From positions 4,050,001-4,082,000 of the forward strand of contig NZ_CP011304.1 of NCBI RefSeq assembly GCF_000981785.2: 32,000 nucleotides of DNA, read 5' to 3'. The position numbers and the translations under genes were made by a program. This stretch comes from Microcystis aeruginosa NIES-2549 (GTDB lineage Bacteria; Cyanobacteriota; Cyanobacteriia; Cyanobacteriales; Microcystaceae). Position 1 is the stretch's first letter, and each line of letters begins with the position of its first letter. The notes under the pieces are model-generated. The model did not search any database and was not told where the DNA came from. It saw only the letters and a program-made list of their open reading frames with translations. Shown here piece after piece: positions 18,998 through 29,104 of this stretch.

Positions 18998-21346
18998 ATG
19001 AATCATTTTCTGCATTCTTTCACTGTTTTTCCTGATTCTGCCCGAAAATCTCGCTCTTACTCCCTCGGTAAACTGCGACGACCCTTAATCTTCCTGTTTA
19101 CCGTCGGTTGTCTGACTAGCGTGGTCGGTTATCGTTTCTATAATCAGCCGAAATTGGCCGTCGGGACTATTTCCCCCGTTACGATTATCGCCCCCGAAGA
19201 TGCCCGTTTTCAAGACCAAGAAACCACCGACCTCAAACGCCAAAAAATTCGGGCTGGACTGCTTCCCAGGCTGAAAAGAGACCCCCAAACCACCGCCCAG
19301 ATCGAGCGATCGCTGCGAGACACTTTAGGGCAATTAAGTCAAATTAGCCCAATTTTGCGAAAAAATTCCATTTTAATGGGCAGGACTATTTCTAACGCCA
19401 CGCTGGGAACGCTGCTCACCTTTTCTGCCGATCAATGGTCAACTCTACAAAGCGGACTCAAATATAAAGAATCTTTTACAAAACCCTTGACAAAAGAGCA
19501 GGAATATGCTGTTAGCGAAATCCAAGCCTATGGTCAGCGCGTGACGAAGGGAAACTTTGAGCAATTTATCGATCGATTAGGGCAATTACGGCAAATACAG
19601 GAGCAAACCAGCCAAAATTATCGGCATTCCAGCTTAAATAAACTCAAATACGCCGATCTGATCACAGCGGCCCAAATGGGCGATCGAGAGTGGCAAAACC
19701 TAGAAACAGCCATCCTGCAAGCGAGTCGCCGGATTTTGGTACAAGGCATTCCCCCGGGGATTTCCACCAGTCACCTAGAGGATACCATCGCCGTGCAGAT
19801 TAGCGGCGATCGCCTAACCCGTCGTCAGCAGCTTTTAGCCGAAAATATCGTTCTGGCGGCCCTAGAGGGACAAACGAACCTGATAGAAGATCGGGAGGCA
19901 ACCAAAGAACAAGCCACTAAAGCGGTGGAAGCGGTAGATATGGTTATGTCTGACGCTCAAGCAGGTCAAATTATCGTTAAAGCAGGCGAAACAATTACTC
20001 AAGCTCAGTTTGTTCTCATCGATGGCTTTGGTTTGAGCGAACGGGGCATTAACTGGATGGGTTTAGGGTCAACGGCAATCCTTGTCACCAGCGCGATCGG
20101 GACTTTTTGCCTCGTTGCTCAGCGTCTCCATCGGCCTCTGCGTCACCGGGATTTTATTCTCTTGGGTTTACTAAGTTTTACCACACCGATCCTAGCGATC
20201 GCCCATATTCCCTTTACCAATCTGGCAGCCGTGGGTTTATTAGTCAGCAGTTTCTACGGCCCGACTCTGGCCGTCACCCAAGTCCTCTTAACTGCCGGTC
20301 TTTCCCTATTCAGCATCCAAGGTATCAGCGCCGATTTAATCGCGGGGACGATAGGGGGACTATTAGCGGCTATGATAGCGGGAAAATTGCGTTCTAGGGA
20401 TGAATTATCGCTGCTAGGGATGGGAATCGGAGTCAGCCAAGGGGGTGTTTATCTGCTCACTTACCTAATCGTTAGCGCCACGGCCAGCACGATCATCTAT
20501 ACTCTACTACCCACGGCCCTCGTCTATGGTCTATCGGGGATAGCTTGGACGGTAATCGCCCTAGGATTATCCCCCTATCTCGAACGCTGTTTCGATGTGG
20601 TCACTCCCATTCGTCTGGTGGAGTTGTCCAATCCTAATTGTAGTTTGCTCAAACGTTTGGCCACGGAAGCGCCGGGGACTTTTCAACATACCCTTTTTGT
20701 CGCCTGTTTAGCTGAAGCGGCCGCCCGAAAACTGCACTGTAATGTGGAATTAATTCGCACGGGGACCCTCTATCACGATATCGGGAAAATGCACGATCCT
20801 CTCGGTTTTATTGAAAATCAAATGGGTGGCCCGAATAAACACGATGAAATTAATGATCCCTACGTCAGTGCCGAGATTATTAAAAAGCACGTTAGCGAAG
20901 GGTTAGTCATGGCCCGCAGACACGGTTTACCGCGAGTCGTCCGCGATTTTATTCCCGAACACCAAGGCAATCTCTTAATTTCCTATTTTTATCAGCAAGC
21001 TTTGCAAAAATCCGTCCAAAATGGTCAAGAATTCGTCGATGAGGCGGCCTTTCGCTACGATGGTCCGATTCCCCAATCGCGAGAAACGGCGATCGTTATG
21101 TTAGCCGATAGTAGCGAGGCCGCTTTGCGATCGCTAAAGGAGGCCTCCCCAGAACAAGCCATGGATATGATCAAAAAGATTTTTCAGGCCCGATGGCGCG
21201 AGCAACAATTAGTAGATAGTGGTATTCGTCAGGAGGAATTACCAATTATTGCCGAGATTTTTGTGCAAGTTTGGCAACAATTCCACCATCAACGCATTGC
21301 CTACCCGAAAGCAGTTTTAGAAGTCTCCTCAGCCGAAAAAAAATAA
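18998..21346 (+). CDS. 7TM receptor with intracellular HD/HDIG phosphohydrolase domain (PgpH-like, candidate cyclic-di-AMP phosphodiesterase)
   Basis: 782 aa. An N-terminal signal-anchor and a large extracytoplasmic domain are followed by about 7 TM helices (aa ~345-530) and the HD domain motifs HTLFVA...LYHDIGK...HH-type. Confidence 0.8.
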   Translation: MNHFLHSFTVFPDSARKSRSYSLGKLRRPLIFLFTVGCLTSVVGYRFYNQPKLAVGTISPVTIIAPEDARFQDQETTDLKRQKIRAGLLPRLKRDPQTTAQIERSLRDTLGQLSQISPILRKNSILMGRTISNATLGTLLTFSADQWSTLQSGLKYKESFTKPLTKEQEYAVSEIQAYGQRVTKGNFEQFIDRLGQLRQIQEQTSQNYRHSSLNKLKYADLITAAQMGDREWQNLETAILQASRRILVQGIPPGISTSHLEDTIAVQISGDRLTRRQQLLAENIVLAALEGQTNLIEDREATKEQATKAVEAVDMVMSDAQAGQIIVKAGETITQAQFVLIDGFGLSERGINWMGLGSTAILVTSAIGTFCLVAQRLHRPLRHRDFILLGLLSFTTPILAIAHIPFTNLAAVGLLVSSFYGPTLAVTQVLLTAGLSLFSIQGISADLIAGTIGGLLAAMIAGKLRSRDELSLLGMGIGVSQGGVYLLTYLIVSATASTIIYTLLPTALVYGLSGIAWTVIALGLSPYLERCFDVVTPIRLVELSNPNCSLLKRLATEAPGTFQHTLFVACLAEAAARKLHCNVELIRTGTLYHDIGKMHDPLGFIENQMGGPNKHDEINDPYVSAEIIKKHVSEGLVMARRHGLPRVVRDFIPEHQGNLLISYFYQQALQKSVQNGQEFVDEAAFRYDGPIPQSRETAIVMLADSSEAALRSLKEASPEQAMDMIKKIFQARWREQQLVDSGIRQEELPIIAEIFVQVWQQFHHQRIAYPKAVLEVSSAEKK

Positions 21347-21381
21347 GAGATAACAGCAAAAAATCAAGGATAATTACCAAA

Positions 21382-22023
21382 ATGCTCCTAATTACTCTCA
21401 ACGAAAATACTTTATCTTTATCTCCGGGCAGTCAAGTTATTTTTCCCCATCAGACTTGGGAAGATTACCAAAGATTGCTGAGTTTACGTCTCCAAAAAAC
21501 CTATCCCAAACTCTATTTTAATTGCAAAACGCAAGAAATTCGGCTTATGTCTCCCCTACCAAGTCATGGCAAACGTATCAATCTTTTAAGTGATTTAGTA
21601 AAAATTATCCTTCGTCGTCAAGGCAAAGACTGGGAATGTTTTGATCCAATTACCTTGAAAATTCCGGGAGAAGCGGGAGTAGAACCAGATACCTGTTTTT
21701 ATATTGATAATAGAGAGGCAATTTTAGGCAAAGAGAGAATTGATTTAACTGTTGATCCTCCTCCCGATTTAGCTATAGAAGTGGACTTTACTTCTCTGAC
21801 TGATGTAGAGGCCTATCAATTGCTGAAAATCCCCGAATTGTGGGTTTATCGTCGGGAAGAATTAAAAATATATCTGTTCAGAGAAGACGGTTATCAAGAA
21901 AGCGAAAATAGTCGTCTCTTTCCCGATATAAATATCAAGAAACTTTTCCCCTATTATGTTGAATTAGGCTGGAACCAAGGTTCTAGTCTTGCCTTACGTC
22001 AGTTTGAAGCTTTAGAGAATTAG
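21382..22023 (+). CDS. Uma2 (DUF820) family PD-(D/E)XK endonuclease
   Basis: ATG 21382 (MLLITLNENT...) is preferred, because the track start at 21271 overlaps the upstream gene. Motifs EPDTCFY...PPDLAIEVDFTS...ELWVY. Confidence 0.8.
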   Translation: MLLITLNENTLSLSPGSQVIFPHQTWEDYQRLLSLRLQKTYPKLYFNCKTQEIRLMSPLPSHGKRINLLSDLVKIILRRQGKDWECFDPITLKIPGEAGVEPDTCFYIDNREAILGKERIDLTVDPPPDLAIEVDFTSLTDVEAYQLLKIPELWVYRREELKIYLFREDGYQESENSRLFPDINIKKLFPYYVELGWNQGSSLALRQFEALEN

Positions 22024-22058: not shown

Positions 22059-22640
22059 TCATACCAAACTGGGGACTTTGCGATAGATAGAAGTGATCGA
22101 TCCCCGGAATCCTACACTGGTGAATTCTACCGCATCCCCGGCTTCATAGATCTGTTCTTTCCAGATTCCCGAATCCTCGCGACGGTGACATTCAATTTTC
22201 ATCTGGTTTTGATGAATAAGAATGTATTCTTTTAAGGTGGGACAGGTTTGATAATCGCTGAATTTATCACCCCTATCAAAGGATTCCGTAGATTTCGATA
22301 ATACTTCAATAATCAGAACGGGATAGAGAATAAAATCATCGGTATTGTTAATCTCTCTCTCGTCACAAACCACCGCAATATCGGGATAATAATAACAATT
22401 TGCCTCCTCTAACCGGACTTTGATATCGGAAGTGAGAACAAGACAGGGACTATCATCGAGATGGATATTCAATAAAGTGGCTAGATTTGTATTTAAGACA
22501 ATATGGGGCTTTTTTGCGCCTACCATTGCATAAATCCGTCCTTTTCGGTACTCGTGCTTGATCGGACTGACTCTTTCCCCTTCTAGATACACTTCTGGAG
22601 AGACATAAAAAAAATTAGGATTCGTCACCATGGTCCTCAT
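22059..22640 (-). CDS. Uma2 (DUF820) family PD-(D/E)XK endonuclease
   Basis: 193 aa. KHEYRKGRIYAM...YYPDIAVVCD...VLIIEVLSKSTESFDRGDKFSDYQ...EYILI. Convergent with the other Uma2 gene, with a 35-nt gap. Confidence 0.8.
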   Translation of the reverse strand: MRTMVTNPNFFYVSPEVYLEGERVSPIKHEYRKGRIYAMVGAKKPHIVLNTNLATLLNIHLDDSPCLVLTSDIKVRLEEANCYYYPDIAVVCDEREINNTDDFILYPVLIIEVLSKSTESFDRGDKFSDYQTCPTLKEYILIHQNQMKIECHRREDSGIWKEQIYEAGDAVEFTSVGFRGSITSIYRKVPSLV

Positions 22641-22840: not shown

Positions 22841-25699
22841 ATGTCCAACGCTAAAAGTTACAAAGATACCGTTAATTTGCCTCAAACTGACTTTGATATG
22901 CGAGCAAATGCCAGTAAACGTGAGCCAGAAATCCAGAAATTCTGGCAAGATGAGCAAATATACGAGAAATTAGCGCAAAATAACCCCAAAGAATTATTTA
23001 TTCTCCACGATGGCCCCCCCTACGCTAACGGGTCCCTGCATATCGGTCATGCTTTAAATAAAATTCTCAAAGACATTATCAATAAATATAAACTGCTGCA
23101 AGGCTACAAAGTGCGCTATGTGCCTGGTTGGGATTGTCACGGGTTGCCGATCGAACTGAAGGTTTTACAAAGTCTCAAAAGCTCGGAAAAAGAGGGTCTA
23201 ACCCCTTTGAAATTACGTCAGAAAGCCCACGATTTTGCCCTTCAAACGCAAAAAGAACAGTGTGAAGGTTTCAAAAGGTATGGAGTCTGGGGAGACTGGG
23301 AAAATCCCTATTTAACCCTACAACCTGAATACGAGGCCGCTCAAATTGCCGTATTCGGAAAAATGGCCCTGAAAGGTTATATTTATCGGGGACTAAAACC
23401 AGTTCACTGGAGTCCCAGTTCTCAAACCGCTTTAGCTGAGGCAGAATTAGAATATCCCGAAGGTCACACTTCCAGGAGTGTCTATGTTGCTTTTCCGATT
23501 ACGTCAGTTTCAACCCCGGTTTTAACGCCATTTTTGCCTAATTTATCCGTGGCTATCTGGACGACTACCCCCTGGACTTTACCCGGGAATTTGGCCGTCG
23601 CATTGAACCCAGAATTAAACTATTCAGTGGTAGAAACTAGCGAGTCTAATTATCTAATCGTAGCGACGGATTTAGTCGAAAAATTGGCCGATACTTTTAA
23701 CAGGACTTTGACGATTAAAGCAACGGTTAAAGGTCTGGAATTAGAACATACTAAATATCGTCATCCTTTGTTTGACAGAGAAAGTGCGATTCTCATTGGT
23801 GGGGATTATGTCACCACCGATTCCGGCACCGGATTAGTTCATACTGCTCCTGGTCATGGTCAGGAGGATTATATCGTCGGCCAACGTTACGGTTTACCGA
23901 TACTTTCTCCCGTGGATGATAAGGGAAATTTCACCGCAGAAGCAGGACAATTTGAGGGTTTAAATGTCTTGAAAGATGCTAATGAAGCAATTATTTTAGC
24001 ACTGACAGAAAAGGGTGCCTTACTCAAAGAAGAAGCATATCAGCATAAATATCCCTACGATTGGAGAACCAAAAAACCGACAATTTTCCGCGCAACAGAA
24101 CAATGGTTTGCTTCCGTGGAAGGATTCCGGGAATTAGCTTTAGATGCAATTGATTCGGTGCGTTGGATTCCCGCAACAGGTAAGAATCGCATCACTTCTA
24201 TGGTCAGTGAAAGAAGCGATTGGTGTATCTCTCGTCAGCGCAGTTGGGGGGTTCCTATTCCTGTTTTTTATGACGAAGAAACGAATGAACCTCTGTTAAC
24301 CGAGGAGACGATTAATCACGTTCAAGCTATCTTCGCGGTCAAGGGTTCTAATGCTTGGTGGGAGTTATCCGTAGAGGAATTATTGCCTCCCAGTTATCGC
24401 GATAATGGTCGCAGTTATCGCAAGGGAATGGATACTATGGATGTGTGGTTTGATTCTGGTTCTAGTTGGAATGCGGTGGCTAATGCTCGACCAGAATTAA
24501 GTTATCCTGCGGATATGTATCTAGAAGGATCGGATCAGCATCGGGGATGGTTTCAATCGAGTTTATTAACCAGTGTGGCTGCTAATGGTATTGCTCCCTA
24601 TAAAACGGTGTTAACTCACGGTTTTGTTTTGGATGAACAGGGACGAAAAATGAGTAAATCTCTGGGTAATGTCATCGATCCCAATGTGATCATTAATGGT
24701 GGTAAAGACCAGAAAAAAGAACCCGCTTATGGGGTGGATGTGATTCGGTTATGGGTGTCATCGGTGGACTATACCAATGATGTGAATATCGGTCAAAATA
24801 TTCTTAAACAGTTGGTAGATATCCGTAATAAAATCCGTAATACTGCCAGGTTTTTACTGGGGAGTTTAAATGATTTTGATCCCGTTAAAGATGCAGTAGC
24901 TTATGAAGATCTACCGGAGATCGATCGCTATATGTTACATCGTATCTCGGAAGTGTTTACGGAAGTAACGGCAGCTTTTGAAAGTTTCCAATTTTTCCGC
25001 TTTTTTCAGACGGTACAGAATTTTTGTGTTGTCGATTTATCTAACTTTTATATCGACATCGCTAAGGATCGTTTATACATTTCTGATCCTAATTCTTTCC
25101 GTCGTCGCAGTTGTCAAACAGTCTATGCTATTGCTTTAGAAAATCTCGCTAAAGCGATCGCTCCTGTCCTCTCTCATCTAGCGGAAGATATCTGGCAATT
25201 TCTCCCCTACAAAACTCCTTATTTATCGGTATTTGAGTCAGGATGGCTAAACATCGATCCTGCTTGGAATAATCGCGAATTGGCCGATAAATGGGCCAAA
25301 TTCCGGCAGCTACGCACCGAAGTTAATAAGGTGATGGAAACTGCCAGAAATGATAAGGCGATCGGTGCTTCTTTAGAGGCAAAAGTTTTACTTTATGTTC
25401 CCGATGAAACCTTACAACAGGAGTTAGAATTATTCAACAATTGTGATAGTTTAACGGGGAATAAAGTCGATGAATTGCGTTATCTATTTCTCTCTTCTCA
25501 AGTGGAATTAGTTAGTGATATTAGCGCAATTCAAACCGCAGAATATAAGGGAGAATCGGACTTGGTTTCGGTGGGAATTGTCAAAGCAGACGGCGAAAAA
25601 TGCGATCGCTGTTGGAATTATTCCACTCAAGTGGGAAAATTTGCCGATGATCCCACTATTTGCGAGCGCTGTAATGCCGCTTTAAAAGGAGAGTTCTAA
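22841..25699 (+). CDS. ileS: Isoleucine--tRNA ligase
   Basis: 952 aa. Class I motifs PPYANGSLHIGH and KMSKS, a CP1 editing domain and a C-terminal zinc knuckle CDRCW...CERC. Confidence 0.95.
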   Translation: MSNAKSYKDTVNLPQTDFDMRANASKREPEIQKFWQDEQIYEKLAQNNPKELFILHDGPPYANGSLHIGHALNKILKDIINKYKLLQGYKVRYVPGWDCHGLPIELKVLQSLKSSEKEGLTPLKLRQKAHDFALQTQKEQCEGFKRYGVWGDWENPYLTLQPEYEAAQIAVFGKMALKGYIYRGLKPVHWSPSSQTALAEAELEYPEGHTSRSVYVAFPITSVSTPVLTPFLPNLSVAIWTTTPWTLPGNLAVALNPELNYSVVETSESNYLIVATDLVEKLADTFNRTLTIKATVKGLELEHTKYRHPLFDRESAILIGGDYVTTDSGTGLVHTAPGHGQEDYIVGQRYGLPILSPVDDKGNFTAEAGQFEGLNVLKDANEAIILALTEKGALLKEEAYQHKYPYDWRTKKPTIFRATEQWFASVEGFRELALDAIDSVRWIPATGKNRITSMVSERSDWCISRQRSWGVPIPVFYDEETNEPLLTEETINHVQAIFAVKGSNAWWELSVEELLPPSYRDNGRSYRKGMDTMDVWFDSGSSWNAVANARPELSYPADMYLEGSDQHRGWFQSSLLTSVAANGIAPYKTVLTHGFVLDEQGRKMSKSLGNVIDPNVIINGGKDQKKEPAYGVDVIRLWVSSVDYTNDVNIGQNILKQLVDIRNKIRNTARFLLGSLNDFDPVKDAVAYEDLPEIDRYMLHRISEVFTEVTAAFESFQFFRFFQTVQNFCVVDLSNFYIDIAKDRLYISDPNSFRRRSCQTVYAIALENLAKAIAPVLSHLAEDIWQFLPYKTPYLSVFESGWLNIDPAWNNRELADKWAKFRQLRTEVNKVMETARNDKAIGASLEAKVLLYVPDETLQQELELFNNCDSLTGNKVDELRYLFLSSQVELVSDISAIQTAEYKGESDLVSVGIVKADGEKCDRCWNYSTQVGKFADDPTICERCNAALKGEF

Positions 25700-25709
25700 G
25701 CTAAATTAA

Positions 25710-25741
25710 AAGGGTGCTTTATTGTCGAATAAAGTACCCTT
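25710..25741 (+). terminator. Hairpin directly after the ileS stop
   Basis: A 13-bp stem aagggtgctttat / ataaagtaccctt (one G-U pair) with loop tgtcga. The downstream T-run is weak. Confidence 0.4.
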
Positions 25742-25790
25742 AGTTGCTTCTACAAACTTAAACTTATGGAAATTCAAGATCAAGAAAAAT

Positions 25791-26822
25791 ATGGATGTTA
25801 GCGATCTTAAGAAAACTGCCTTGATATATTGGCCAGTTGAATTAGCAGAAAAAGAAAAACTATCTAGTATAATTCCCTTACTAATACGAACTCAAGAAAG
25901 TTTTATCAGTATATTAAGAATAGCATCTAAAGATCCATTCTCATGGATAACAGCCTTAGATTTATGTGATGAACTTTATCCTAATCTATTTTTAAAACAT
26001 CTCTGTGTTCTATCTGATATTGGTGGAGAAAATTTAAAACGATTCTCTTCAGAACTTTCTAGGGATTTTTATTCTAAAGATTTTGAGTTTATATTTCGAG
26101 ACAAAATTTATCAATACCAGTTTGTTTCTTTGAAAAATAGAGCTACATGGAATAATAAAAATTTGGGATTAGACGGGGAGGGGATATTAAAAACTTGTTC
26201 TCTTAGCCAAGAAATCCGAGATGTTATTATGCTAATAATGTTCGGTGGTTTGGCAACCTCTATAAATGTTCCTGATGAAATAGAAGAAAAATGTATTATT
26301 GGTGCTATGATAGGTAACATTAGACTTCTGGAAGAATATATTAAGCATCGTTACATCTGGGTTAGTAAAATTACTGGGGGAGCAAAATCGAATAAAATGG
26401 GTCAGCTTGCTCAAGAATACATTAGAGAAAAATTGAAAGTATATTTACCTGAGTGGGATTTTTCTAGAAAATCTATACCAGGAATAAGTCAAAATGAGGG
26501 TAGAACACTAACCAAATTTGATATAGTGGGAATACCACCTCATGATCGACCACCTTACTGGGGTATTGAAGTATCATTTCAATTTACTACTAACAGTGTT
26601 GTAGAAAGGAAAGGAAAATTGGCTAGAGATAGACGAGAAATTTTAAACAGACAGCACCATAAGGTTGCTTATGTAGTTGATGGAGCGGGAAATTTTGACA
26701 GAAGTTCTTTTATACAAGACTTAATTGATTTTAGTGACTGTGTTGTTAACTTTAGTGAAAATGATCTTAAGCGTTTAGCTAAAACTATGGAGGATTCAAT
26801 TAAAAATGAGCCACAAAAGTGA
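25791..26822 (+). CDS. Putative restriction endonuclease-like protein (unassigned; motif layout recalls the DpnII/MboI family)
   Basis: AT-rich ORF. ATG 25791 is preferred, since the track TTG at 25722 lies inside the ileS hairpin. The C-terminal third reads GGAKSNKMGQLAQEYI ... KFDIVG ... IEVSFQFTTNSVVERK. Its 3' end overlaps the methyltransferase start by 17 nt. Confidence 0.45.
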   Translation: MDVSDLKKTALIYWPVELAEKEKLSSIIPLLIRTQESFISILRIASKDPFSWITALDLCDELYPNLFLKHLCVLSDIGGENLKRFSSELSRDFYSKDFEFIFRDKIYQYQFVSLKNRATWNNKNLGLDGEGILKTCSLSQEIRDVIMLIMFGGLATSINVPDEIEEKCIIGAMIGNIRLLEEYIKHRYIWVSKITGGAKSNKMGQLAQEYIREKLKVYLPEWDFSRKSIPGISQNEGRTLTKFDIVGIPPHDRPPYWGIEVSFQFTTNSVVERKGKLARDRREILNRQHHKVAYVVDGAGNFDRSSFIQDLIDFSDCVVNFSENDLKRLAKTMEDSIKNEPQK

Positions 26823-28572
26823 AAATTGTCTGCCACTAAAAATTATTGAAATACAGCCTTCTGCGTTAGAAAATAATTATCAAACTATAGGCAAAAACTC
26901 TAATGTCTATTTTCTTCATCTTCCGACTATTAAACTATGTAAAATCAAAGAAATATCTAATCTTAAAGATTACTTAATTAGTTTTGCAAATGAATTAGAT
27001 GATAAAAGTGTATTGTGTATATTGTCCAATGCAGAAATTGCCTGTCAAGTCATATCGTTTTTAGAAAAATCTACATATTTCAAGCTATGGGTTGCTATCA
27101 AAAGAAGTCAAGCATTAATGGATGAGAGCTATATGTTAGACAACCATGTATCTTTGACGATGTTTACTAAATACCGTTCACCTTTAAAGCATAATAAAAC
27201 TTTAATTCAGTATTCTTATTGTCCCTCCTGTAATAAAACGACAAAAGATTATGGAGGTAAAAAACATTTATATAGTCCATTGGGAACATTAATGTCAGAT
27301 GTGTGGAGGGACATAAGTTATTCTCATCAAAAAATACCTCAAGATATTCTTGAAAGAATAAAGGATCTTTTTGGGTTAGAACCATATCAATTTGTGTACT
27401 ATATAGATCTACAAAATTATTTTGCCACCATCGACAATAATCAAAAAATAAAACCTCTAGAAAATACAACTAATAATGTCATATACAAACAACCAAGTAA
27501 TTTGATTAAAAGCAATCTACTAATTAATGATGATTGCTTAAATTATCTACGATTATTACCCAATAATTCAATAGATTTTGTTTTTGCCGATCCTCCTTAC
27601 AATATCCAAAAAAAATATGATATATGGAATGATTGTCAGGATAATAATCAATACATAAAGTGGTGTATTGAATGGGTCAATGAACTGGCTAGAGTATTAA
27701 AGAATGGAAAAACTCTAGCACTCCTCAATATTCCTATATACTTGGCTAAATACTATGAATTTAGTCAAGGAGTTTTAGAATTTCAAAATTGGATAGTTTG
27801 GGAAAGTCTTAGTCTTCCTGTAAGACAAATAATGCCTGCACATTATGGTATTTTGTGCCTAGGCAAAGGTGAACCAGAAATTAAAAAAATTAGTAATGAA
27901 AGTATTTATGATTATAATTTTTCTTTAAAAGAATGGTATTGTATTAGAGAGCAATGTATCAAAAAAAGAAATAAAGATAAAACAGTAGATAGAGAACCGT
28001 TAACTAATATATGGTGGGACATTCATAGACTAAAGCATAATTCAAAACGTGTAGATCACCCATGTCAACTACCTCCAACACTAATGAAACGTATTCTCAC
28101 TATATTTACCGAGGAAAATGATTTAGTATTAGACCCCTTTAATGGCTCTGGTACAACTACTCTTGTTGCCTCTATCATGAACAGACGATACATTGGCATT
28201 GAAATTTCTGAGCAGTATCATTCTTTAGCTGAACAAAGACATACAGAGTTAGAAAATGGTGTTGATCCATTTGCTAAAAGAGATATTATTCCTAAGGCTA
28301 AAAATAGTAGAGTTAATCGTATTAAAAAACAAAAATATGATGTTTCTAAAAAAACTTTACAGCTAGAAGTGAGAGATATAGCGCTAAAAATAGGACGAAA
28401 ACCAACCAGAGAAGATATAGAAAAGTACAGCCAATATCCTTTCAGATACTTTGACGAATATTTTGCTGATTGGGGAGAAGTTTGTAGCGCTGTCGGTGAT
28501 AAGGGTATGCAAGAAAACAAGGACATAGATAACTACCCAAACTTTAAGCAGCTTGAGCTACCATTTGAGTGA
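26806..28572 (+). CDS. DNA methyltransferase, beta-class N6A/N4C family (motif IV before motif I), with a degenerate N-terminal duplicate half and a C-terminal helical tail
   Basis: 588 aa. Motif IV FADPPYN (DPPY at nt 27589-27600), HPCQLP (28057-28074) and motif I LDPFNGSGTT (28132-28158). The N-terminal ~230 aa and C-terminal ~90 aa are additional to a normal enzyme of about 270 aa. Confidence 0.85.
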   Translation: MSHKSENCLPLKIIEIQPSALENNYQTIGKNSNVYFLHLPTIKLCKIKEISNLKDYLISFANELDDKSVLCILSNAEIACQVISFLEKSTYFKLWVAIKRSQALMDESYMLDNHVSLTMFTKYRSPLKHNKTLIQYSYCPSCNKTTKDYGGKKHLYSPLGTLMSDVWRDISYSHQKIPQDILERIKDLFGLEPYQFVYYIDLQNYFATIDNNQKIKPLENTTNNVIYKQPSNLIKSNLLINDDCLNYLRLLPNNSIDFVFADPPYNIQKKYDIWNDCQDNNQYIKWCIEWVNELARVLKNGKTLALLNIPIYLAKYYEFSQGVLEFQNWIVWESLSLPVRQIMPAHYGILCLGKGEPEIKKISNESIYDYNFSLKEWYCIREQCIKKRNKDKTVDREPLTNIWWDIHRLKHNSKRVDHPCQLPPTLMKRILTIFTEENDLVLDPFNGSGTTTLVASIMNRRYIGIEISEQYHSLAEQRHTELENGVDPFAKRDIIPKAKNSRVNRIKKQKYDVSKKTLQLEVRDIALKIGRKPTREDIEKYSQYPFRYFDEYFADWGEVCSAVGDKGMQENKDIDNYPNFKQLELPFE

Positions 28573-28714
28573 TTCTTAATAATGTTGACTTATTTCTCAC
28601 AGGATCGCTTAGTCAAAATTAAACCCCCTAACCGGCGAAAATTAACTGCAAGCGATCGAAAAACTGGGAAAATATTCAATTGATTCAATGTCATCTTTTT
28701 TAACTATCCTGCCC

Positions 28715-29104
28715 ATGAATAATCAGGTCATCCGTACTGATAAAGCTCCGGCCCCTGTGGGTCCCTATAATCAAGCGATCGCCGCTCCTGGTCCTTTTCT
28801 CTTTGTTGCGGGACAAATTCCCCTAGATCCCGTCACGGGTGAAATCGTCTCCGGGGAAATTAGCGCCCAAACCGAACAAGTTATGGCCAATCTAGAGGGC
28901 ATTTTAACCGCTGCTGGGGCTAATTGGTCAAATGTGGTGAAAACTACCGTCTTTCTCTCGGATTTAGCCAATTTCGGGGCGATGAATCAAGTTTATGCCC
29001 GTTATTTCCCCCCGGAAACTGCCCCGGCCCGGGCCTGTGTGGAGGTGGCCCGTCTTCCCAAAGATGTGCTAGTGGAAATAGAATGTATTGCCGCTTTAGC
29101 CTAA
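28715..29104 (+). CDS. ridA: RidA (YjgF/TdcF) family reactive-intermediate imine deaminase
   Basis: [22 protein letters not shown] ... [22 protein letters not shown] 28715 gives the usual length of about 129 aa, and an in-frame ATG at 28688 is the alternative. Confidence 0.88.

Follow-up and report, generated by a model that had tools for sequence, protein, structure and literature searches.

A low-GC segment of 2.84 kb between ileS and ridA is very probably a compact Type IIP restriction-modification (R-M) cassette carried in an exchangeable slot of the Microcystis genome (Table 1; coordinates refer to the window, the whole 32-kb stretch of DNA analyzed). Separate, adjacent endonuclease and methyltransferase genes are the arrangement of Type II R-M systems, and both proteins fall into R-M families by Pfam and PADLOC, bearing out the candidate R-M module proposed in a preliminary description of this DNA. 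The BanI-family endonuclease would recognize a short site and cut DNA left unmodified there, and the beta-class methylase would protect host DNA by modifying that same site.

Table 1. Features of the ileS-ridA interval, in window coordinates.
Feature	Position	Strand	Basis or comment
Hairpin, probable ileS terminator; conserved left slot boundary	25710..25741	+	14-bp stem
Cargo segment, low-GC R-M cassette	25742..28580	+	GC; comparison of Microcystis representatives
Restriction endonuclease gene, BanI family (343 aa)	25791 (ATG)..26822	+	Pfam, PADLOC
GGAGG ribosome-binding site for the methylase, inside the 3′ end of the endonuclease gene	26789..26793	+	Read from sequence
DNA methyltransferase gene, beta-class amino-methyltransferase (588 aa)	26806..28572	+	Pfam, PADLOC, fold
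N-terminal degenerate methyltransferase-like domain (aa 1-205)	26806..27420	+	Without DPPY, without FxGxG
Active methyltransferase domain (aa 233-490)	27502..28275	+	Motifs; PDB sequence and fold matches
C-terminal small helical domain (aa 514-564)	28345..28497	+	Pfam PF18780, E=1.6e-4, below cutoff
Right junction, intergenic, upstream of ridA	28581..28687	+	Alignment, blastn; common to strains with differing cargo

Judged by its sequence, the first gene, whose product had been left unassigned, is a BanI-family Type II restriction endonuclease. Specifically, i) it matches Pfam PF24447 (RE_BanI) with E=1.1e-107 and 360.4 bits (cutoff 28), above the curated threshold and over its full length (residues 24-357 of a 366-aa ORF, profile positions 4-335 of 338); ii) the PADLOC model REase_II matches it with E=8.6e-64; iii) precomputed PF24447 and PF26568 (RE_BanI_C) matches are present on all 618 of its homologues; iv) the invariant residues D244, E260-x-S-F-Q264, and E272-R-K274 (343-aa numbering) lie in a predicted beta-sheet/helix core; and v) it is 44% identical to E. 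coli plasmid endonucleases. Such a full-length match to known enzymes, which the preliminary description had set against its own reading of the locus, exists for the endonuclease half through RE_BanI. An in-frame TTG at 25722 would extend the protein to 366 aa, but this codon lies inside the hairpin that follows ileS, making the ATG, at which the Pfam match starts and which most gene callers choose, the likelier start. A search of the endonuclease sequence against PDB chains gave no match and a PDB fold search with its model nothing significant (best E=0.014), so that the PD-(D/E)XK call rests on the Pfam family, on literature support for this assignment of the BanI family (PMC2441816), and on the conserved residues. 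The exact 343-aa sequence was not on record in the look-up; entries were found for the methylase sequence of the window (AKE66435.1 in M. aeruginosa NIES-2549) and for the cluster representative P0121.

The ORF of the endonuclease is intact, its conservation within a Microcystis cluster of 180 members is 97-100%, all family-invariant residues are in place, and the long methylase adjoins an endonuclease gene at every locus examined, whether in Microcystis or not. These observations argue against a decaying R-M system in which the endonuclease is inactive and the methylase persists as an orphan enzyme with an epigenetic or regulatory role. Decay would fit with the several orphan methylases that cyanobacteria carry (PMC6105098), with an endonuclease activity that is here predicted only, and with the lack of avoidance of GGTGCC/GGCACC in the window (5 occurrences against about 6.7 expected), but we consider it improbable.

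The second gene encodes a methyltransferase that is of the beta class and unusually long, just as first described. PF01555 matches aa 256-476 (E=1.5e-47), PF00145 does not match, and PADLOC recognizes the protein as MTase_II; fold matches to CcrM, M.BceJIV, RsrI, and MboIIA reach E-values down to 8e-17. Motif IV (DPPY, aa 262-265; 27589-27600) is N-terminal to motif I (FNGSGT, aa 445-450; 28138-28155) in a Rossmann-like fold, as is characteristic of the beta class, and both motifs are invariant in 45 aligned homologues which are themselves conserved over the whole length of the protein; SAM-binding and catalytic motifs are intact, as in a Type II R-M methylase. CcrM, M.BceJIV, M.RsrI, M.MboIIA, and M1.HpyAVI share this catalytic fold and motif order, and CcrM resembles the 588-aa methylase further in having an extra C-terminal domain. 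The length of the methylase comes from a degenerate core at the N terminus, tied by a disordered linker to the active domain, after which follows a small helical domain at the C terminus. The last of these has many invariant residues and four helices in the model, and is probably an accessory DNA-binding domain; precomputed matches to PF18780 (homing-endonuclease-associated repeat) occur in many methylase homologues. Among 3383 homologues with E<=0.001, the best 120 are 561-629 aa long; with this family of long methylases and a full-length RE_BanI match for the endonuclease, the earlier view that both proteins depart from standard architectures does not hold.

Sequence comparison and the structural model together indicate that the N-terminal domain is a degenerate, catalytically dead copy of the methyltransferase core: i) aa 80-170 align without gaps, at 33% identity, with aa 193-283 of a PF01555 methylase of the ordinary kind (417 aa); ii) in an exhaustive search, matches to the domain fall in the catalytic domain of ordinary PF01555 proteins; iii) hhalign places it co-linear with the catalytic domain of the same protein over 165 columns (P=5.6e-4); and iv) the order of secondary-structure elements runs parallel between the two domains of the model. 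The copy has an invariant motif of its own, YCPxCxKTTKDYGGKKHxY...GTLxSDVWRDI. Two additional conserved domains of the methylase are without above-threshold Pfam assignment, and the locus is a defence slot, which might suggest a new kind of defence other than R-M, with these domains as infection sensors and the nuclease as effector. This is very improbable: ordinary R-M families explain both proteins over their full lengths, the N-terminal extra domain is a degenerate methylase core rather than a sensor fold, and BanI-family endonucleases elsewhere accompany plain C5-methylases in minimal two-gene R-M plasmids.

In the R-M cassette, the dead copy may stand in for the second subunit of beta-class dimers, adding DNA contacts, and the methylase would be a single-chain pseudo-dimer. 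The beta-class enzymes named above, which act as dimers, have one core per chain, with several copies of the chain in the matched entries, whereas a single chain of the 588-aa methylase contains two cores, and in the first of them both the catalytic and the SAM-binding motifs are missing. METTL3-METTL14, found among the distant fold matches, likewise combines an active MT-A70/beta-like core with a homologous dead core, the latter thought to serve in substrate binding; it is, however, a eukaryotic RNA m6A writer made of two polypeptides, and its likeness to the putative pseudo-dimer is conceptual only.

Both ORFs are on the plus strand (25722 TTG or 25791 ATG to 26822, and 26806-28572), and the 17-nt overlap that had been reported between them is confirmed at 26806-26822, making translational coupling, also proposed earlier, probable. 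The GGAGG, a strong ribosome-binding site, sits 12 nt 5′ of the methylase ATG, and no comparable ribosome-binding site was seen 5′ of the endonuclease ATG, an asymmetry that may bias expression toward protection. A separate point, which runs against the main reading, is that an operon with the endonuclease first and without a controller protein is risky for establishment in a new host.

The long methylase also adjoins a BanI-family endonuclease in all three non-Microcystis loci examined (L081, L082, and L083), which belong to unrelated genomes and lie between housekeeping genes; the endonuclease gene comes first, with an 11-nt overlap in L081 and L082 and a 12-nt gap in L083, and the L082 pair is AT-rich for its host (0.39 vs 0.53-0.62). 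That unrelated bacteria have the two genes in the same order and as tightly coupled marks the pair as a standard Type IIP module rather than the poorly described system it had been taken for. Endonuclease and methylase homologues also agree, in many cases, in the length of their longest contig, consistent with pairing. The label "atypical" survives in part: the partner is not of the C5 type and the tandem methylase looks undescribed, but the rest is a standard R-M pair.

BanI, HgiCI, and unnamed E. coli and Salmonella plasmid pairs (4.3-5.8 kb) have endonucleases of the same family (PF24447 plus RE_BanI_C). Their methylases differ from the one described here: the E. coli plasmid partner is a C5-cytosine methylase (PF00145), as are the partners of BanI and HgiCI, whereas the 588-aa protein is a beta-class enzyme with DPPY which matches PF01555 and not PF00145. 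It would therefore modify a different base than these systems do, and the exact site may differ as well. The layout is the same, the plasmid pairs consisting of two overlapping head-to-tail genes with the endonuclease first; the BanI and HgiCI genes too are head to tail (PMC3039593).

By analogy with BanI, the endonuclease most likely recognizes a short site related to G^GYRCC. The invariant DPPY favours m6A, a modification with which the full BanI site GGYRCC would not fit; since GGCGCC is without adenine, the target of an m6A system would have to differ from the full GGYRCC set and could, for instance, be GGTACC. The closest characterized sequence relatives are m6A enzymes (M.BceJIV, MboIIA, and CcrM, together with a YhdJ-like NCBIfam), the m4C rotifer enzyme N4CMT is also close by fold, and DPPY is not an absolute discriminator between m6A and m4C. 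Neither GGTACC nor GGCGCC occurs in the window, but 25 more of the 64 palindromic hexamers are missing from it too (27 in all). Avoidance of GGYRCC or its sub-sites in the window and two distant loci was considered as a guide to the recognition site and dropped, the counts being too small. A literature search for a characterized homologue or a Microcystis methylome tying the methylase to a motif returned only general statements on BanI. We advance, as a tentative and rather doubtful proposal, that the methylase is a pseudo-dimer whose degenerate core, with its conserved Cys/His-rich motif resembling a TRD, helps to read the target, and that a BanI-family endonuclease has here swapped its C5 partner for an m6A-type enzyme; if true, this would be an example from nature of endonuclease specificity and methylase partner changing together.

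The cassette is foreign to its surroundings in composition. GC content is 0.311 for 25742-28580 and 0.442 elsewhere in the window, of which this is the lowest-GC 2.8-kb stretch; GC3 is 0.20 in the endonuclease gene and 0.22 in the methylase gene, compared with 0.38 in ileS and 0.46 in ridA. The abrupt drop after the ileS hairpin noted in the preliminary description is thus real, and its G+C counts (21 for 25801-25860, 14 for 27481-27540, and 28 for 25561-25620) proved exact on recount. It was also correct that the HIP1 sequence GCGATCGC is missing from the island and present elsewhere (none between 25609 and 28775, 16 across the whole window), though the gap is statistically weak (1.6 expected, P(0)=0.21). 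HIP1 absence as a sign of foreign origin was accordingly dropped, not being significant alone.

The limits of the segment are set by comparison with other Microcystis. The hairpin lies directly 3′ of the ileS stop codon (25697-25699), has an RNA folding energy of -19.2 kcal/mol (z=-5.4), and is kept in 6/6 Microcystis sequences whatever the cargo; in the alignment, homology between sequences with different cargo stops just past it. Junction alignments accordingly move the ends of the island from the 25700-28690 first proposed to 25742 and about 28580.

We compared the slot in the window with that in five Microcystis species representatives (L001-L005) using blastn and junction alignments. Only L004 has the cassette (99.5% identity); the other four have different cargo, with the hairpin and the right junction unchanged, namely PD-T4-2 together with a PDC-M28-like pair in L005, PD-T4-2 alone in L001, and in L002 and L003 inserts that share the junctions and insert size of L005 at the DNA level. 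Among named strains, M. aeruginosa NIES-2549 has the island, and T1-4 and NIES-4325 are examples without it. Since different defence systems occupy this position in different strains, ileS-ridA is a strain-variable, exchangeable defence slot, and the segment is not core DNA but, as had been supposed, acquired or variable. Where the R-M pair does occur its position is constant: it follows ileS in 8/8 Microcystis contigs with enough left flank (L084-L089, L094, and L095), and in the six of these that extend far enough (L084-L089) ridA comes next. The search for an empty ileS-ridA site was negative; outside Microcystis ridA is not near ileS, so that no such site can be defined in outgroups.

The constant position in every Microcystis contig carrying the cassette, together with the failure to find an empty site, would be expected if the low-GC segment were native core DNA or the insertion of a mobile element, but this is the least credible of the readings considered: four of the five representatives have unrelated genes at the same junctions, the composition of the segment is far from that of its flanks, and no integrase, transposase, tRNA, or direct repeat accompanies it. 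Earlier inspection had likewise seen no integrase, transposase, or clear target duplication; a search for flanking direct or inverted repeats that might be insertion scars gave chance-level matches only, and the segment therefore lacks the integrase or transposase, direct repeats, and tRNA or attachment site of an integrative element or genomic island. For the exchangeable cassette, strains may instead take up DNA and replace their cargo by homologous recombination within the conserved flanks, with no need of a dedicated recombinase. Defence hotspots between core genes likewise hold varied defence systems between the same flanking genes across strains, here all of low GC; the ileS-ridA slot differs from them in having no integrase or mobile-element backbone and in being very small (one to two systems, 1.6-3.7 kb).

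These assignments improve the annotation of genes recorded mostly as "hypothetical protein", "restriction endonuclease", or "DNA methyltransferase". For the DNA methyltransferase field, the tandem of dead and active methylase domains poses a structural question, and the change of methylase class within one endonuclease family is a useful example of R-M evolution, though neither would alter current thinking. Microcystis is known for an exceptional wealth of R-M systems (PMC8262939), and a small slot for exchangeable defence cargo is now documented beside ileS in this genus; these cyanobacteria form blooms, and their R-M load is thought to be relevant to both phage resistance and genetic tractability.

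The segment between ileS and ridA has a GC content of 0.311, versus 0.442 in the remainder of the window, and is the lowest in GC of any equal-sized stretch there; GC passes from about 0.40 at the ileS end to 0.26-0.35 within the segment and about 0.50 in ridA, and third-codon-position GC is 0.20 and 0.22 in the two genes of the segment versus 0.38 in ileS and 0.46 in ridA. The preliminary description had noted this abrupt drop, and our recount of its three 60-nt lines returns exactly its 21, 14, and 28 G+C; it was equally correct about the two overlapping ORFs that fill the segment, and about the missing HIP1 octamers (GCGATCGC; 16 copies in the window, none between 25609 and 28775), yet HIP1 absence by itself is weak evidence because the expectation for 2.8 kb is just 1.6 copies (P=0.21 for none). 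As it also reported, our searches of the window and segment found no integrase, transposase, or convincing flanking repeat, nor any tRNA or Rfam family.

Features of the ileS-ridA segment and of the loci compared with it
Feature	Position	Strand	Remarks
Uma2-family gene	21271-22023	+	upstream of ileS
Uma2-family gene	22059-22640	-	upstream of ileS
Hairpin after ileS stop	25710-25741		stable, z=-5.4
AT-rich segment	25742-28580
Upstream ORF	25766-25801		11 codons; ATG 25766, TAG ending 25801
Restriction endonuclease (REase) gene	25791-26822	+	343 aa
GGAGG before methylase start	26789-26793		read from sequence
Overlap of the two ORFs	26806-26822	+	17 nt
Methylase gene	26806-28572	+	588 aa
ridA	28688-29104
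Restriction-modification (R-M) pair, non-Microcystis genome	L082:6001-8791
REase and C5-methylase, E. coli plasmid pVE-T9_4 (NZ_AP027967.1)	L096:1793-4047		genes overlap
Alternative cargo, Microcystis	L005:12963-16485		two adjacent candidate defence systems; GC 0.30-0.38
HEPN-ridA fusion, Microcystis	L001:14043-14927		in frame, 294 aa

The first protein, previously left unassigned, matches the Pfam family named 'Type II restriction enzyme BanI' (PF24447) end to end, with E=1e-107 and 360 bits where the cutoff is 28, and also matches PADLOC REase_II; 618 homologues are detectable, the best 120 of which are equal in length and carry both RE_BanI and RE_BanI_C. Translation likely starts at the ATG at 25791, because the Pfam match begins there and most gene callers use it; an in-frame TTG at 25722 falls within the hairpin. 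A short upstream ORF overlaps this ATG in a different frame and could damp REase translation. The residues invariant among 32 homologues, D244 (FDIV), E260-x-S-F-Q264, and E272-R-K274, are located in beta-strands and a helix of the C-terminal core of a confidently predicted model (pLDDT 84.6), and fit the published, sequence-based placement of BanI in the PD-(D/E)XK class (PMC2441816). Sequence and fold searches of solved structures found none with significant resemblance to the model.

The same gene pair, a BanI-family gene with a 584- or 608-aa methylase immediately after it, recurs in two unrelated contexts outside Microcystis: i) L081 and L082, two assemblies with the same neighboring genes that we count as one context, where the genes overlap by 11 nt and (in L082, a 5.4-Mb non-cyanobacterial genome) the pair has a GC of 0.39 versus 0.53-0.62 in the flanks; and ii) L083, where a 12-nt gap separates the genes and the GC of the pair is that of the host (0.52). 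Housekeeping genes flank the pair in both. For many of the endonuclease homologues and methylase homologues, moreover, the recorded length of the longest contig coincides. We conclude from sequence and gene order that the two genes belong together as a compact Type IIP R-M operon. The GGAGG ahead of the methylase start, with no comparable site ahead of the REase start in the window, would favor expression of the methylase over the nuclease.

The window belongs to Microcystis: its IleS is 99-100% identical to that of five Microcystis species representatives, only one of which (L004) carries the cassette, at 99.5% identity; the other four have only the left hairpin and the right segment from about 28581 in common with the window. 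L005 instead contains a PDC-M28A-like gene (140 aa), a ParA-like ATPase of the KGGVGR type (PDC-M28B, 403 aa), and a PD-T4-2 pair in which one protein is GmrSD_N/DUF262 and the other HEPN; L002 and L003, compared only on junctions and insert size (about 3.6 kb), resemble L005 in these features; and L001 holds the PD-T4-2 pair only. This alternative cargo is likewise low in GC. Among Microcystis contigs with the R-M pair, the pair comes after ileS in all eight with sufficient left flank (L084-L089, L094, L095), and ridA comes after the pair in all six that extend to it (L084-L089). Thus, with differing cargo between the same junctions, ileS-ridA is a small strain-variable defense slot. Because the flanks are conserved and a recombinase is absent, exchange would most simply proceed by homologous recombination in those flanks. 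The preliminary description was therefore accurate in observation and right to read the island as acquired and as restriction-modification, but wrong to regard its proteins as non-standard and poorly described: the nuclease belongs to a textbook family, and the module that the two genes form is widespread. One more Type II system in Microcystis is to be expected, since its R-M load is already known to be among the highest of any prokaryote (PMC8262939).

The neighboring genes have features of their own. The window's ridA scores above the NCBIfam Rid-family cutoff and also matches, with 296 bits, positions 166-294 of the 294-position PADLOC PD-T4-2_B profile; L001 has ridA joined in frame to the HEPN gene, and this fusion covers the whole profile with a score of 687 bits. 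Pfam calls the HEPN family 'RiboL-PSP-HEPN', and ridA lies close to ileS only in Microcystis. The profile matches, fusion, and linkage suggest that there may be a functional link between ridA and the PD-T4-2 cargo, or that the profile may have been built from HEPN-ridA fusions. Just upstream of ileS, two Uma2-family (putative restriction-endonuclease-like) genes sit in a lower-GC stretch (0.39), and such genes number one to three in Microcystis contigs L084-L088.

In the second protein, a PF01555 amino-methyltransferase domain spans residues 256-476, with DPPY at 262-265 and FNGSGT at 445-450 in beta-class motif order, and the model (pLDDT 76, pTM 0.78) matches CcrM, M.BceJIV, rotifer N4CMT, RsrI, and MboIIA. 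Conservation among 45 homologues (46-71% identity) extends over all 588 residues. At the C-terminus, 80 residues make up a small, conserved, helical domain (PF18780 match below threshold) that probably binds DNA, by analogy with the C-terminal domain of CcrM, which does so.

Few motifs in the protein are as strongly conserved as YCPxCxKTTKDYGGKKHxY...GTLxSDVWRDI, which lies within the N-terminal 232 residues. Four independent results from sequence and model show this region to be a degenerate copy of the methyltransferase core: i) its profile aligns co-linearly with that of the protein's catalytic domain across 165 columns (P=5.6e-4, probability 30%), pairing 'LP' with DPPY and RLxDLFG with RLIxLFT just ahead of FxGxG; ii) the order of modeled secondary-structure elements is parallel in the two regions; iii) residues 80-170 give an ungapped alignment (33% identity) with residues 193-283 of a Klebsiella plasmid protein, a PF01555 methylase of ordinary type and 417 aa, and this segment of the Klebsiella protein also aligns to the catalytic domain of the window protein; and iv) when the N-terminal 232 residues were searched exhaustively against 1.8 billion representatives, 144 proteins were found, comprising long methylases with the domain N-terminal and ordinary PF01555 methylases, the match falling inside the catalytic domain in 9 of 10 of the latter tested. 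The copy lacks DPPY and ends ahead of the SAM-binding loop, so it is predicted to be unable to act as a methylase. Beta-class methylases such as CcrM act as dimers, and the PDB entries matched contain several chain copies; we therefore propose that the dead copy would replace the second subunit. Searches outside REBASE found no description of this architecture. The N-terminal search also returned P0385 (511 aa), in which a PF01555 core is fused to a LexA DNA-binding domain at the N-terminus and to an S24 peptidase domain; it resembles a LexA-like DNA methylase that responds to SOS and possibly cleaves itself.

With DPPY invariant and the nearest characterized relatives by sequence m6A enzymes, m6A is favored, though not decisively, as the modified base. 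If so, the full BanI site could not be protected, because GGCGCC contains no adenine, and the system would read a different, A-containing site, GGTACC being the obvious candidate; otherwise the methylase would be m4C. Site counts in the window cannot decide either question, because 25 other palindromic hexamers are absent together with GGTACC and GGCGCC. This puts 27 of 64 palindromic hexamers at zero in 32 kb (TGTACA, TTCGAA, CTGCAG, and CTCGAG among them), CGATCG is commoner than expected (46 versus 31.6), and the pattern fits heavy R-M pressure plus HIP1.

The REase is 44% identical to homologues on plasmids of E. coli and Salmonella (4.3-5.8 kb), where the gene after the REase encodes a C5-cytosine methylase; BanI and HgiCI have this arrangement too. 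About 27 plasmids similar to pVE-T9_4, small, ColE1-type (Rop-encoding), and found in E. coli, E. fergusonii, and Salmonella, hold little beyond the REase (annotated 'hypothetical protein') and the overlapping C5-methylase. Two points remain of interest: the tandem dead-plus-active methylase, and the swap of methylase class within the BanI REase family, with C5-cytosine enzymes on the plasmids and an amino-methyltransferase in the window.
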